Shown here piece after piece: positions 1 through 8,224 of a stretch of DNA of 8,224 nucleotides. A program made the translations under genes and the position numbers. This DNA comes from a virus. Position 1 is the first letter of the stretch; every line of letters begins with the position of its first letter. Location: the IMG/VR virus record IMGVR_UViG_3300005099_000176; one strand, given 5' to 3'. The notes beneath the pieces were generated by a model, which saw only the letters and a list, made by a program, of their open reading frames with translations, was not told the DNA's origin and ran no database searches.

Positions 1-91
1 GCAAAAATCGACTCCGCCGGCGCAAATTAAATTCGGTCGATCACAGATTTACCGGATTTTGTCGGACCTCTCGAGCGAGCCTAGAACGGAA
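1..91. repeat. Terminal direct repeat, copy 1 (identical to 8134..8224); circular-genome overlap
   Basis: Base-by-base comparison: 1..91 equals 8134..8224 with no mismatch. It contains the rep stop codon (81..83). Confidence 0.95.
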
Positions 92-1565
92 CAAATCTAT
101 CCATGAGACCCGCCAAGTACTCAACCACGGCCGCATGGCCTCCAGACTCCGCGCGCTCCAGGAGAATCTGGCGAACATCGGCTTTCTGATGCAGGACGCA
201 ACGCCATTGCGTCGCCGTGATGCGGACCAGCTCGGCGGCGTCGTCGGCCTCCTCCTCGGCAATCTCTTCGTCCGACACCTGGACAATACCGAAAAGCTCC
301 TTGAGACCGTCCGACCAGATGATTTGCCGCTTGCCGAAAAACGCCTTCGCAAAGACCACGAACAGCGCACCGAAGCGCTTGTGCGAGCCGTCCGCACTTC
401 CGTCGTGATACAGCCTAAGCAAGTCGAAAGGAGTCAGGCTTTTAGCCTGGCCTACCTTGCTATGTTGCTTTGCCATCTCGGAGCCGACACCCCAACGCGG
501 CTCACGCCCGAACTTAGCGACGTACTCGGCGGCAGACTCCATGACGACGACGTTGACGCCCCTGGCCCTGTTCGGCAAGGGAAGGCCAGCAGCCAGGCAA
601 GCGGCACGCCACAAGGCGAACAGCTCGGACCGGAGTTGCCGCAGCCTGGTATCGGATAAGGGCTTCGAAGTCAGCCAAAGGGAATGCTCATGAGGATGCC
701 AGCCGTTAGAATCGCCGTAAGTGACCTCCAGGGCACGAACGTTACCAACATGGCCCATCCGCTGGACTAGCTCACGATAGGCCCTCTGGCGGCGCATACG
801 TGCCCTTGCGTCGGAAAAACGAGCCAGCCAGTCGGCCAGATCGTCGGAACGCTTGTGCGAAGTGGTCAAAGTAATCATGTACAGGCCACCACCTTGCTTC
901 TTGTGCAAGTCCGTCGCCTGGACGACCTCGTTTTTCCGACGCTCCGACACCTTGACGGCGCAAGGCGGACATGTCCATACAGACCCGCACACCATCAAGC
1001 CGCCGAAATGGGCCTTCTTCATCGAAGGGGAATACAAGACGGAAACCTCTGCCCCGACCTTGCGCCGGATGCAGCCCGAAACCCGCCATTGCGTGCCGCG
1101 AGGTGTTACCTCATTGGCAAGTAAGCGCCCTGCGCTGGACTGAGCACTGAGCCGGTTAGCACGAGCGTTCAAAACCGAGAATTCGGACGGGGTTTGAACG
1201 ACGAGTTGGCGGGACCTTGGATGAACCGTAAGTCTTTGAATTTCCCCGGTTTTTTCGTCTAAAACCTCGGTAAATCCGGCTCGTGATTCCGTGTTGTTAC
1301 CAAGGCCCTGCACCACCACCCCGCCCGCCCCCGCTTGCGCGTGGTCAGGCGTGGCGGCGGCACGGGCTTCGCGCTCCAGGCGGCGAACGTAAGCAGGGAA
1401 TCCCTTGGGTTCAAGAAGAGGCGGGGTTGCATCACGAGTCTCGCGATGACGTTGCATTGCTGCAACGTTTGACGCTTCCTGCTCGCGTCCAAATGCGAGT
1501 TTGCGCCGCAGTGTTTGAAGCTCTTGGCCCGTGTAGGGCTTGACTTCTGCTTTTTTATCCAACAA
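81..1565 (-). CDS. Rolling-circle replication initiator, HUH superfamily (pC194/pUB110 Rep_1-like motifs) with a long N-terminal extension
   Basis: The open frame runs 81..1628. Motifs read from the translation: YMITLTT (motif 1), WHPHEHSLW (HUH motif 2), AAEYVAKFG (catalytic Tyr motif 3), and the Cys cluster CGSVWTCPPCAVKVSERR that precedes motif 1 in Rep_1-type proteins. Start chosen at TTG 1565 because AGGAG lies at 1576..1580. The track start at 1628 is also TTG, has no SD sequence, and would place a hairpin/T9 element inside the gene. The start is uncertain (candidates 1628, 1568, 1565, 1562, 1457). Confidence 0.8.
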   Translation of the reverse strand: MLDKKAEVKPYTGQELQTLRRKLAFGREQEASNVAAMQRHRETRDATPPLLEPKGFPAYVRRLEREARAAATPDHAQAGAGGVVVQGLGNNTESRAGFTEVLDEKTGEIQRLTVHPRSRQLVVQTPSEFSVLNARANRLSAQSSAGRLLANEVTPRGTQWRVSGCIRRKVGAEVSVLYSPSMKKAHFGGLMVCGSVWTCPPCAVKVSERRKNEVVQATDLHKKQGGGLYMITLTTSHKRSDDLADWLARFSDARARMRRQRAYRELVQRMGHVGNVRALEVTYGDSNGWHPHEHSLWLTSKPLSDTRLRQLRSELFALWRAACLAAGLPLPNRARGVNVVVMESAAEYVAKFGREPRWGVGSEMAKQHSKVGQAKSLTPFDLLRLYHDGSADGSHKRFGALFVVFAKAFFGKRQIIWSDGLKELFGIVQVSDEEIAEEEADDAAELVRITATQWRCVLHQKADVRQILLERAESGGHAAVVEYLAGLMDRFVPF

Positions 1566-1610
1566 AATTTGCTCACTCCTACTACTTAGCCGTGGACGGA
1601 GAACAGCTAC

Positions 1611-1645
1611 AGAGGGGCCGGACTGCAATCCGGTCCTTTTTTTTT
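1611..1645 (+). terminator. Intrinsic-terminator-like hairpin plus T9, oriented on the plus strand (antisense to rep)
   Basis: An 8-bp stem, 1615..1622 (GGGCCGGA) paired with 1629..1636 (TCCGGTCC, one G-T wobble), and a 6-nt loop, followed directly by nine T (1637..1645). On the minus strand it reads A9 then hairpin with no following T-run. It could instead be an ssDNA origin or packaging hairpin. Confidence 0.4.
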
Positions 1646-1649
1646 GCCT

Positions 1650-1664
1650 GGTGCCGTTGGCACC
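1650..1664. other. Perfect hairpin GGTGCC-GTT-GGCACC in the rep-proximal intergenic region
   Basis: 6-bp perfect inverted repeat with a 3-nt loop, read directly. It lies in the non-coding region between the operator copy and the rep start. Confidence 0.5.
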
Positions 1665-1712
1665 GCTTGCGGCTCAAAAAGGTATTTCCCTCTGTTACTG
1701 AAACTGAACGCT

Positions 1713-1742
1713 ACTGTAAAACGTGTCAATGGGCATTGTCAA
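1713..1742 (-). promoter_or_regulatory. Candidate rep promoter (minus strand): TTGACA, 18-nt spacer, TACAGT
   Basis: On the minus strand, TTGACA is the complement of 1737..1742 and TACAGT is the complement of 1713..1718. The geometry matches the candidate promoter at 7769..7798 (TTGACA-18-TACATT). It overlaps the operator-like palindrome. The -10 matches only 4/6. Confidence 0.35.
1724..1741. promoter_or_regulatory. Operator-like palindrome O2: TGTCAATGGGCATTGTCA
   Basis: 17/18 identical to the reverse complement of the perfect palindrome at 7793..7810. It lies in non-coding DNA upstream of rep. Confidence 0.7.
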
Positions 1743-1760
1743 AGCCACTGTTGCCAACAC

Positions 1761-1870
1761 GCGCTCTGTAGGAGCGCTTTGGATGCCGGGGGTTCGCCCT
1801 TCGGGCTCCCTCGCTATTCGCTCGGCTTGAGCCGCCCCCGTTCCTCTGTTCGGGCTCAGTCGGGGCGGTC
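1761..1870. other. Cluster of GC-rich hairpins in the large intergenic region (candidate ori or packaging-signal region)
   Basis: GCGCTC-TGTAG-GAGCGC (1761..1777). GCCC-TTCG-GGC tetraloop-like hairpin (1796..1806). CCGCCCC (1832..1838) pairs with GGGGCGG (1862..1868), which competes with TGAGCC (1828..1833) pairing with GGCTCA (1853..1858). There is no credible ORF here. Confidence 0.4.
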
Positions 1871-1900
1871 TTCAGGACGGTGTTAGCAACGTGCAACATA

Positions 1901-2372: not shown

Positions 2373-2420
2373 ATTATACGTGACTTGTCACAAGAACGGG
2401 AGTATTTTTTGTGACTTGTC
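2373..2420 (-). promoter_or_regulatory. Candidate promoter/operator of the 53-aa/RHH module: perfect -10 TATAAT flanked by GTGACTTGTC repeats
   Basis: On the minus strand, TATAAT is the complement of 2373..2378, about 25 nt upstream of the ATG at 2348. The palindrome GTGACTTGTCAC (2380..2391) abuts it. A second GTGACTTGTC lies at 2411..2420, 31 bp away (about three helical turns). No good -35 hexamer. Confidence 0.45.
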
Positions 2421-7300: not shown

Positions 7301-7383
7301 CGCTGTTGTCCCGCGATCCAGCCGAGGGCGAAACAGCAGACGACGGCAACGCCTAACAAAACTTCAGGCGTGACGGCTTCCAT
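7297..7383 (-). CDS. Tiny hydrophobic protein, 28 aa
   Basis: MEAVTPEVLLGVAVVCCFALGWIAGQQR. The ATG (7383..7381) overlaps the TAA of the upstream 105-aa gene (TAATG). Single TM-like segment. Confidence 0.5.
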   Translation of the reverse strand: MEAVTPEVLLGVAVVCCFALGWIAGQQR

Positions 7384-7700
7384 TACGCAGCCTTAGCGAG
7401 AGGGAAAATTTTCGGGGTAGAGAGGAACTTGAAGCCGACGACAGTAGCCGCAAGAGCGTTGCCCTTGCCTGGACGCATCTTTACATCGACCTCGAACAGG
7501 GACGGCAGATCGTGAGCCATCAGGGATGCGAAGACTTCAGGCTCAACCATGACCTTCATGGGCTTGCAGCCTTTTTCTTTATCGCTGGCGACGCGGTAAT
7601 CGTTGGACATCCAGACCTGGTGCAATTTCTGGACTTCGCCGGTTTGGCTATCAGGAATTTCGTACTTATCGCACGAGAGAATGAGGGCGGTATCAGCCAT
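7383..7700 (-). CDS. First gene of the structural operon; candidate ssDNA-binding protein (gV analogue), assigned by position and size only
   Basis: 105 aa. AGGA lies 6 nt upstream of the ATG at 7700. The sequence looks beta-rich (LILSCDKYEI, KVMVEPEVF, LFEVDVKMRPGKGNALAATVVGFKFL). It occupies the gene V slot, immediately before the tiny hydrophobic ORFs and the coat gene. I recognise no sequence motif. Confidence 0.45.
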   Translation of the reverse strand: MADTALILSCDKYEIPDSQTGEVQKLHQVWMSNDYRVASDKEKGCKPMKVMVEPEVFASLMAHDLPSLFEVDVKMRPGKGNALAATVVGFKFLSTPKIFPLAKAA

Positions 7701-7768
7701 GTTGTTTCCTTGTGGTAATTGGTGAGTTTGTCAGTCAGACCGCACCAAACCCCGGCCTGATGTCCGAG

Positions 7769-7798
7769 AATGTATCTCTCAATGTTTACCGCTGTCAA
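7769..7798 (-). promoter_or_regulatory. Candidate promoter of the structural/assembly operon: TTGACA, 18-nt spacer, TACATT
   Basis: On the minus strand, TTGACA is the complement of 7793..7798 (inside the palindrome) and TACATT is the complement of 7769..7774. This is about 70 nt upstream of the ATG at 7700. Confidence 0.45.
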
Positions 7799-7810
7799 TG
7801 CCCATTGACA
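7793..7810. promoter_or_regulatory. Operator-like perfect palindrome O1: TGTCAATG-CC-CATTGACA
   Basis: Perfect 8-2-8 inverted repeat. It ends 10 nt before the repressor ATG (7821) and overlaps the -35 of the divergent minus-strand promoter. A second copy lies at 1724..1741. Confidence 0.75.
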
Positions 7811-7820
7811 TGCACCAAGA

Positions 7821-8099
7821 ATGAAAACAACACTCGACTACTTGAACGAGGTCATCAAAAGACGCGGAGATATCGGAAATGACAACCAGCTCGCCCTATA
7901 CCTGGGAATCACCAGACAAGCCGTGCACCAGTACAAGAACGGCCAAAACATGTCCGTCCTGGTAGCCATCAAAGTAGCTCGATGCCTGTGCATTGAGCCG
8001 GTGGAAACGGTATCGGCCACCCTATACGCCCAAGCGAAAAGCGAGGATGAAAAACAGTTCTGGAAGGAACTCTACGAGGAGGCCACCCACCGAATTTAA
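7821..8099 (+). CDS. Cro/CI-type helix-turn-helix transcriptional repressor
   Basis: 92 aa. Canonical HTH NQLALYLGITRQAVHQYKNGQ. It is the only plus-strand gene, is divergent from the structural operon, and sits next to the palindromic operator. The SD is weak (AAGA), so the transcript may be short-leadered or leaderless. Confidence 0.8.
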   Translation: MKTTLDYLNEVIKRRGDIGNDNQLALYLGITRQAVHQYKNGQNMSVLVAIKVARCLCIEPVETVSATLYAQAKSEDEKQFWKELYEEATHRI

Positions 8100-8170
8100 T
8101 TCGACCTGGTCAACTGGAAAAACGCTCTCGAGCGCAAAAATCGACTCCGCCGGCGCAAATTAAATTCGGT
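8089..8170. repeat. 13-bp perfect inverted repeat (ACCGAATTTAATT ... AATTAAATTCGGT) enclosing 56 nt in the convergent repressor/rep intergenic region
   Basis: Arms lie at 8089..8101 (including the repressor TAA stop) and 8158..8170 (the same bases as 25..37). The loop holds a small CGCT-CTCG-AGCG hairpin (8123..8134) flanked by A5 on both sides, which reads T5-hairpin-T5 on the minus strand. Confidence 0.6.
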
Positions 8171-8224
8171 CGATCACAGATTTACCGGATTTTGTCGGAC
8201 CTCTCGAGCGAGCCTAGAACGGAA
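8134..8224. repeat. Terminal direct repeat, copy 2 (identical to 1..91); circular-genome overlap
   Basis: Exact 91-bp identity with the window start. It re-presents the last codons of rep (stop at 8214..8216). Confidence 0.95.

Follow-up and report, generated by a model that had tools for sequence, protein, structure and literature searches.

The repressors RstR, FpsR and Pf4r of filamentous phages each act at a single control region. In CTXphi, the three sites bound by RstR lie together in one compact region before a single operon, and in SW1, FpsR binds PfpsA of a single operon; in both phages all the phage genes lie in one operon behind the rep promoter and the operators are clustered in one intergenic region (PMC4762005). 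The repeats bound by Pf4r of Pf4 are non-palindromic and belong to the promoter region of the repressor's own gene (PMC8402870). A more dispersed arrangement is found in the lambda cI OL/OR and 434/P22-type systems where, as at the locus described here, one small helix-turn-helix (HTH) repressor is associated with related palindromes at two promoters about 2 kb apart. In lambda the repressor gene lies beside one of the operators, giving autoregulation, and we propose likewise for the phage studied here. In the rolling-circle plasmid pMV158, repB is controlled by CopG and antisense RNA II; CopG is cotranscribed with rep and represses it (PMC5717011).

The nearest annotated genomes to that of our phage are those of PMBT54 (OR047306) and blackswan219-6 (MZ474488), whose Rep proteins are 35% and 47% identical, respectively, to the Rep encoded here. 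These phages share its order of genes, with rep, a small reverse-strand regulator and then ssb through to the secretin gene, and with an RHH gene before rep. Pseudomonas phage PMBT54 is episomal and continuously secreted, and the paper describing it contains no analysis of promoters or operators (PMC10534721).

Results

Two related palindromes in a circular inovirus genome

The window, i.e. the whole stretch of DNA that we analysed, comprises the 8,224 nt of IMG/VR record IMGVR_UViG_3300005099_000176. Since positions 1-91 recur exactly at 8134-8224, the window is a circular inovirus genome, that of a small filamentous phage, of 8133 bp. Its minus strand carries the typical inovirus gene set. 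An ssb-like gene (7383..7700) opens the structural and assembly operon and is followed by small membrane ORFs and by the genes for the major coat protein gp8 (6981-6700), a pIII-like protein (6652-5189), a pVI-like protein (5185-4847), Zot/pI (4859-3687) and a secretin (3690-2437). Two small ORFs come next, orf53 (2348-2187) and the RHH-like orf97 (2194-1901), and then, after a gap of about 330 nt, rep (81..1565), which encodes a Rep_1 rolling-circle initiator (Pfam Rep_1, 1.6e-11). An AGGAG and a TTGTTG context conserved in relatives make TTG 1565, rather than 1628, the most likely conserved start of rep. The sole gene on the plus strand (7821..8099) encodes a 92-aa HTH protein, the proposed Cro/cI-type repressor, and is divergent from ssb and convergent with rep. 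Because this gene sits reversed between rep and ssb, the phage is split into two transcription units. The rep and repressor stops (81 and 8099) are convergent and 115 nt apart; the gap contains a weak minus-strand hairpin followed by U5 at about 8118-8137, and no plus-strand terminator was found between the two stops. In a megablast comparison with 50,697 phage records the genome matched none of them, a search of the whole window at E≤1 found no Rfam family, and an exact look-up of the window's own repressor returned no record.

The initial annotation of this DNA had reported that positions 1724..1741 equal the reverse complement of a palindrome at 7793..7810 at all but one of 18 positions, and a site scan gave the same result: TGTCAATGGGCATTGTCA (1724-1741) matches the 7793-7810 palindrome at 17/18 positions on the opposite strand. 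Read on the minus strand, 1724-1741 is TGACAATGCCCATTGACA, one mismatch from TGTCAATGCCCATTGACA at 7793-7810. The site at 7793..7810, hereafter O1, lies between the repressor gene and the ssb operon and is a palindrome with perfect half-sites, TGTCAATG-CC-CATTGACA; the site at 1724..1741 upstream of rep, hereafter O2, reads TGACAATG-CC-CATTGACA on the minus strand, with one asymmetric base in the distal half-site. In the inverted repeat TGTCAAT-GNNC-ATTGACA the half-site centres are 11 bp apart, about one helical turn. The pair was also recovered as inverted repeat I12 (18 nt, 94%). As the annotation had supposed, such a recurrence exceeds chance: none of 200 dinucleotide shuffles contained any match to the operator, no site in the window other than O1 and O2 comes within three mismatches of it, and isolated half-sites, those of O1 and O2 left out, are about as frequent as chance predicts. 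The placement of O2 in non-coding DNA upstream of rep was likewise correct, the rep start at 1565 putting the site 159 nt 5' of the TTG. The separation of 2 kb given for the two sites holds on the circular map, where an arc of 2064 bp that includes rep and the repressor gene joins their centres, but not in window coordinates, where the distance is 6069 bp.

Candidate promoters overlapping O1 and O2

We scanned the window with the sigma-70 consensus, on the assumption that it applies to the host. By this consensus, the minus (gene) strand holds only two sites matching at 10 of 12 positions, and both are overlapped by an operator. The first is the candidate rep promoter, P_rep (1713..1742, minus strand), with a -35 TTGACA at 1742..1737, an 18-nt spacer and a -10 TACAGT at 1718..1713. 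The second is the candidate promoter of the structural and assembly operon, P_ssb (7769..7798, minus strand), in which the -35 TTGACA at 7798..7793 is itself an O1 half-site and is followed by an 18-nt spacer and a -10 TACATT at 7774..7769. Taking transcription to start 7 nt past the -10, P_rep would start near 1706, with O2 at -35..-18, and P_ssb near 7762, with O1 at -48..-31. Promoter scans of three relatives (L031, L027 and L033) gave the same two top sites. Both predicted operators, O2 among them as the annotation had stated, would thus cover consensus -35 elements, if the host sigma is of this type; such overlap with promoters is found in Cro/cI systems.

The annotation had also ascribed the same TTGACA-18-TACAnT geometry to both promoters. 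The hexamers bear this out (TACAGT and TACATT), but the operators lie in registers that differ by 13 bp relative to the -35: in P_ssb the -35 is the promoter-proximal half-site, and in P_rep it is the distal half-site, with the palindrome filling the spacer. The likeness of O1 and O2 could be put down to shared or duplicated promoter architecture with no repressor involved, as both sites hold a consensus -35 at an equal 18-nt spacing from a TAnAnT -10. We consider this very improbable. A copied promoter would not account for the likeness because the operator register differs, conservation spans the whole of both 8-bp half-sites, also where a half-site does not serve as the -35, and distant relatives swap both sites for another palindrome that overlaps other parts of the promoters (see below). 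On the sequence evidence, what the two promoters share is one putative recognition sequence overlaid on them in different ways.

The single asymmetric base of O2 does break the symmetry of one half-site, as first described, but it is not incidental. It is fixed in 11/11 genomes of the group defined below, together with an invariant TT before the operator, and the T-to-A change turns TTGTCA into the consensus -35 TTGACA for rep. The altered half-site position, T3, is invariant across every operator type in the family, so that O2 is plausibly the weaker site; its conserved asymmetry probably lowers affinity relative to O1.

Conservation of the two sites among close relatives

Relatives were gathered through a Rep search of IMG/VR, an operator-pattern scan and a large protein collection. 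The protein collection contained 31 repressor homologs (59-100% identical), and the contigs of ten of these were fetched; a peptide-pattern search for the repressor in IMG/VR found nothing. Group A genomes that carry rep number 11 distinct genomes (the window and ten relatives), which are related, so that counts among them are not counts of independent events. The repressors of the ten further genomes are 56-75% identical, and Rep is 51-61% identical in the three compared. Each of the 11 genomes has exactly two sites (≤3 mismatches), in the same two places. O1 has perfect half-sites, 100% conserved in 13 genomes, and lies about 3-13 nt from the repressor ATG (10-13 nt in the rep-carrying group A genomes). 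O2 is present in 11/11 genomes, 88-159 nt upstream of rep, with half-sites that are 99% conserved. In anchored column statistics over the group A genomes, identity is 99-100% in the operator half-sites and about 90% in the -10 hexamers, compared with 57-60% in the flanking 30 nt and 69% in the P_ssb spacer; the -10 of P_rep, TA[C/G/A]AGT, is 92% conserved at a fixed spacing. The central dinucleotide varies between CC, GG, GC, GT/AC and AG/CT (identity 73-81%). A free centre between fixed half-sites is the pattern expected of a dimer that contacts two half-sites.

The intergenic regions of filamentous phages are rich in functional hairpins of single-stranded DNA, and the palindromes might accordingly act on single-stranded DNA or in replication, in minus-strand priming, in packaging or as Rep-binding origin elements. 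O1 forms a modest hairpin (-5.8 kcal/mol, z -3.2), and at a distance of 40-110 nt from O2 there are conserved hairpins and a conserved TTTTTGAGCCGG motif, possibly the origin. O2, however, does not fold as single-stranded DNA (-1.7 kcal/mol, z about 0): its stem is interrupted by the conserved asymmetric base, a mismatch that is selectively kept in 11/11 genomes. Moreover, O1 is remote from rep and from the candidate origin and abuts the repressor gene, and both sites co-vary with the HTH helix (see below). We regard a function of this kind as extremely improbable, and retain binding of a repressor to double-stranded DNA as the preferred reading.

The repressor gene and O1 were also found together outside the rep-carrying genomes. 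The 5921-bp contig L036 (Logan DRR127966) encodes a repressor of 63% identity whose ATG is separated by 3-4 nt from the palindrome, and has a TTGACA-18-TAAATT promoter, on a different backbone that includes a TraH-like ORF and has no Rep_1, ssb or orf97 homolog on the contig. Judging from this contig, the repressor-operator module appears to move between backbones. Four other IMG/VR contigs with the exact 18-mer (L017, L019, L021 and L022) were set aside as chance matches, since each has just one site and even a profile search of the surrounding 2.5 kb gave no homolog of the repressor; by a rough estimate, about three such contigs would be expected by chance, versus the four seen.

The reverse-strand HTH protein and other candidate readers of the operators

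By sequence alone the assignment of the 92-aa protein is borderline. It matches HTH_3 with E=5e-4 and 20.4 bits, below the Pfam gathering threshold of 23, and phrog_4441/638, and in a phmmer search of PDB sequences its sole match was a 434 repressor variant with an E of 0.9. The AF2 model (pLDDT 95) places the HTH helices at residues 21-28 and 32-39, and the top Foldseek matches of this model were C.AhdI, C.BclI, 434 Cro/repressor and N15 Cro (probability 0.97-1.0, E ~0.1), all of them HTH dimers of the Cro/cI/C-protein kind. The predicted structure thus points to the five-helix HTH fold of Cro/cI proteins. Within the 92 residues there is no S24 peptidase or C-terminal oligomerisation domain, and the window contains no second HTH gene that might serve as a Cro partner. 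RecA-driven induction is not expected of a 92-aa protein that lacks an S24 peptidase domain.

The operators could be real and yet be read by another protein, either orf97, as a replication regulator of the CopG/omega type, or a transcription factor of the host. The first of these candidates has several features in its favor: it is a small candidate DNA-binding protein encoded just upstream of O2, it matches phrog_536 'transcriptional regulator' (1.4e-6), its homologs are found in every group A inovirus examined and weakly match PF10723 RepB-RCR_reg, with a weak BrnA match too, and its PMBT54 equivalent is annotated as an omega repressor. However, HTH dimers typically read inverted repeats of this kind, 18 bp long in a 7-N4-7 layout with a free centre, and the 18-bp P22 operators have a matching half-site layout. 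O1 lies within 3-13 nt of the HTH gene in every genome, and the HTH gene and O1 are both present in L036, where an orf97 homolog is absent from the contig. Across group A the identity of orf97 is 36-71%, as against invariant half-sites and an invariant HTH recognition helix, and the palindrome GTGACwwGTCAC upstream of orf53/orf97 is a better candidate for an orf97 operator. As for host factors, LexA, CRP, FNR and Fur-type boxes do not fit on inspection. A reader other than the 92-aa HTH protein is in our judgement unlikely, and the HTH protein remains the favored one.

Operator type and recognition helix in distant relatives

The order rep, reverse-strand repressor and ssb is kept in relatives with repressors of as little as 32-37% identity. 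Groups B-D and blackswan219-6, with repressors that are 32-40% identical, have no A-type site and carry CGTYAAG-N4-CTTRACG, whose core TTAAG-N4-CTTAA appears similar to the P22 operator core. Upstream of ssb there are one to three of these B-type sites, in tandem at intervals of 16 nt, and a further copy lies 50-125 nt upstream of rep; in the GenBank genome of blackswan219-6 they are at 1254, 1270 and 6346. The pattern is expected about 0.05 times per genome by chance, and only one cross-type match was seen, a B-type match in L032. The B/C pattern was drawn by eye from some of the genomes later scored, group D and blackswan219-6 being independent of it. Carriers of the second operator type are L005-L009, L011, L013-L015 and L038. 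An all-against-all comparison of the regions upstream of ssb and of rep gave 13-16 of 16 within group A and 11-14 between group A and the others.

In group A the recognition helix is invariant, T31-R32-Q33-A34...Q37-Y38 (TRQAxxQY), and helix 2 begins with N-D-N-Q. The corresponding sequences in groups B and C are TRQAISQQ and S-D-Y-K/H. The shared TRQA core accompanies a shared GTyAA half-site core, and the operator type tracks the recognition-helix variant across the groups. An alignment of related phages had been proposed with the initial annotation as a check on whether both sites co-vary with the repressor; in the relatives compared here, both sites switch type together with the recognition helix. 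The heteroimmune variants of CTXphi differ in repressor and operator together, and by their sequences the A-type and the B/C/D-type phages are likely to be heteroimmune groups. No paired site was recognisable in groups E and F or in PMBT54, so the two-operator design is not demonstrated family-wide. The reverse-strand gene of PMBT54 is annotated as MatP_C/RHH-type, not HTH, and its genome has neither type of palindrome.

Other predicted control elements

A search by eye for a sigma-70 promoter of the repressor gene gave nothing convincing in any of several registers, among them a leaderless arrangement and promoters with a -35 at the O1 half-site or at a conserved GTTTACC. The region at 7811-7823 has no recognisable Shine-Dalgarno (SD) sequence, and the ATG lies 10 nt from O1 (3-13 nt in relatives). 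With neither an SD sequence nor a convincing promoter, the repressor gene may use a leaderless or non-canonical start.

The rep leader of about 140 nt (1566..1706, minus strand) is structured (fold z=-2.9), and its SD is sequestered by a stem formed by 1601..1598 with 1579..1576. RNAalifold found compensatory changes in both hairpins, and while the SD varies between relatives (AGGAG, AAGAG, AGAAG), its stem partner changes to compensate. On the plus strand, between P_rep and the rep start, lies a strong intrinsic terminator (1611..1649) that is conserved in relatives and has a 12-bp stem (1611-1640) followed by T9 (dG -18.6 kcal/mol, z -3.4). A candidate antisense promoter, TTGACT-17-CAAAAT (1540..1568, plus strand), is seen as a promoter-like site in 10/11 group A genomes, 66-69 nt from the T-run. 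From these positions we tentatively propose an antisense RNA of about 70 nt, directed against the rep leader and SD and ending at the 1611-1649 terminator; the proposal is tentative because the promoter is weak (its -10 matches at 4/6 positions) and overlaps rep codons. A 1.7-kb repressor transcript running antisense through rep to the same terminator was considered and set aside, the short antisense promoter fitting the position of the terminator better. With its structured leader, the candidate antisense RNA and the RHH-like protein, rep probably has control layers additional to O2.

Between O2 and rep, at 1647-1690, a conserved motif CCTTTTTGAGCCG(G) is followed by short hairpins and a run of A8-9; the A-run with the hairpin is kept even in PMBT54. 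Possibly the Rep_1 initiator nicks here and the segment is the double-strand origin or nick region; O2 would then be within about 100 nt of the origin. On the other side of O2, the GC-rich region between the orf97 stop and O2 (1743-1900, minus strand) contains several short hairpins, among them GCCCGAAGGGC and GCGCTC-ctaca-GAGCGC. Its overall fold is only weakly better than that of shuffles (z -1.8); possible roles are those of a minus-strand origin, of a packaging signal or of a weak terminator insulating P_rep.

A third candidate control region lies upstream of orf53/orf97, where the palindrome GTGACAAGTCAC (2373-2391, minus strand) precedes a perfect TATAAT; a partial repeat of this palindrome is seen at 2411-2421, 30 nt upstream. 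The palindrome GTGACwwGTCAC occurs only in the genomes with the closest orf97 (the window, L027, L031 and L033), and L031 and L033 have promoter matches at the same place upstream of orf53/orf97. This distribution suggests that GTGACwwGTCAC may be the operator of the RHH-like orf97.

In the ssb leader (7719-7758, minus strand) there is a conserved hairpin, AGGCCG-[GGGTTTGGTG]-CGGTCT, whose loop TTGGTG pairs with a downstream CACCAA as a candidate H-type pseudoknot. Pairing was preserved in 144/144 cells over 12 genomes, as compared with 26-51% in slid controls. Three of the pairs have double changes, and GGTG to GGGG always goes with CACC to CTCC. The pseudoknot could serve in translational control of ssb or as a signal in single-stranded DNA.

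Discussion

We consider it probable that the Cro/cI-type HTH protein of 92 aa encoded by the phage itself has two operators, of which O2 is the second. This model rests on the sequence match of the two sites, their conservation, their co-variation with the repressor, their overlap with promoter consensus sequences and the HTH fold. The two-operator, two-promoter reading first put forward for this DNA has withstood the comparative tests, namely the conservation of the sites, the co-variation with the recognition helix and the linkage of O1 to the repressor gene in L036, and remains a reading of sequences. Because the same 18-base palindrome is present at both promoters, one small repressor probably throttles both rep and the virion operon.

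In this model a repressor dimer would bind the 18-bp TGTCAATG-NN-CATTGACA on double-stranded replicative-form DNA. Bound at O1, it would cover the -35 of the promoter for ssb, the coat genes, Zot and the secretin; bound at O2, it would cover the -35 and the spacer of the separate rep promoter. One HTH dimer would thereby repress both promoters sterically and, at O1, regulate its own gene as well. As O1 lies 10 nt from its ATG, the repressor almost certainly limits its own gene, and two operators would be needed because the phage is split into two transcription units. We infer binding, the dimer stoichiometry, the transcription starts, repression over activation and the order of affinities. Repression is preferred to activation because both sites hold a consensus -35 and O2 lies between the -35 and the -10. 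A centre near -39.5, such as that of O1, is also the position of class II activators, though here a consensus -35 lies inside O1. O2 being probably the weaker site, the shut-off of ssb and the virion genes would precede that of replication.

The mechanism so proposed is, by analogy, conventional, i.e. that of a Cro/cI-type repressor with dispersed operators as in lambda. The resemblance has its limits, since lambda has three tandem operators per promoter and group A phages a single operator at each; groups B-D, unlike group A, have 2-3 tandem sites upstream of ssb. With one site per promoter, no S24 or oligomerisation domain and no Cro partner, the locus differs from a lambda-type switch. The phage itself, unlike lambda, is a chronic and apparently non-integrating inovirus: no integrase was found in the genome, and a GTDB genome scan with Rep gave only three distant matches in unrelated MAGs, and so neither a host nor a prophage copy. 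Since PMBT54 is episomal and secreted and neither an integrase nor a prophage copy was found, the repressor is likely to provide negative-feedback control of copy number and virion output together with superinfection immunity, and not a lysogeny switch.

Compared with other inoviruses, the locus is CTXphi-like in that a small HTH repressor encoded on the opposite strand is predicted to control the rep promoter. It departs from the CTXphi RstR/ig-2 arrangement, in which the repressor gene is divergent from rep, in that the repressor gene is divergent from ssb and convergent with rep and in that two promoters, at a distance of 2064 bp, have an operator each. By comparison with these described systems, such a split layout with two operators is new for inoviruses. 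A possible likeness to the CopG and antisense RNA II system of pMV158 extends to orf97 and the candidate countertranscribed RNA only, with a Rep_1-type initiator after an RHH-like gene and a structured leader. In contrast to pMV158, the RHH gene is followed here by a separate candidate promoter with a putative HTH operator before rep begins, and the antisense promoter is weak.

Rep might even be under control in three layers: the HTH protein at O2, which may form a loop with O1 over the 2 kb of rep and the repressor gene in the manner of lambda OL and OR, the antisense transcript of about 70 nt (~1575-1648, plus strand) and orf97 at GTGACwwGTCAC. We find a circuit of this extent rather doubtful. 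If true, it would be partly borrowed from rolling-circle plasmids and would determine how many copies of the genome and how many virions are made during a chronic infection without integration.

The layout extends the range known for filamentous-phage repressors, while the underlying mechanism is a textbook one. It provides a proposed wiring diagram for environmental filamentous phages that have Rep_1, a secretin of their own and a reverse-strand HTH gene, a large clade that has hardly been studied. With one repressor and two dispersed operators, replication and virion production could be throttled separately. At least two specificity groups of operator and recognition helix are apparent; these would predict phages that mutually exclude each other, and may offer small orthogonal repressor-operator pairs.
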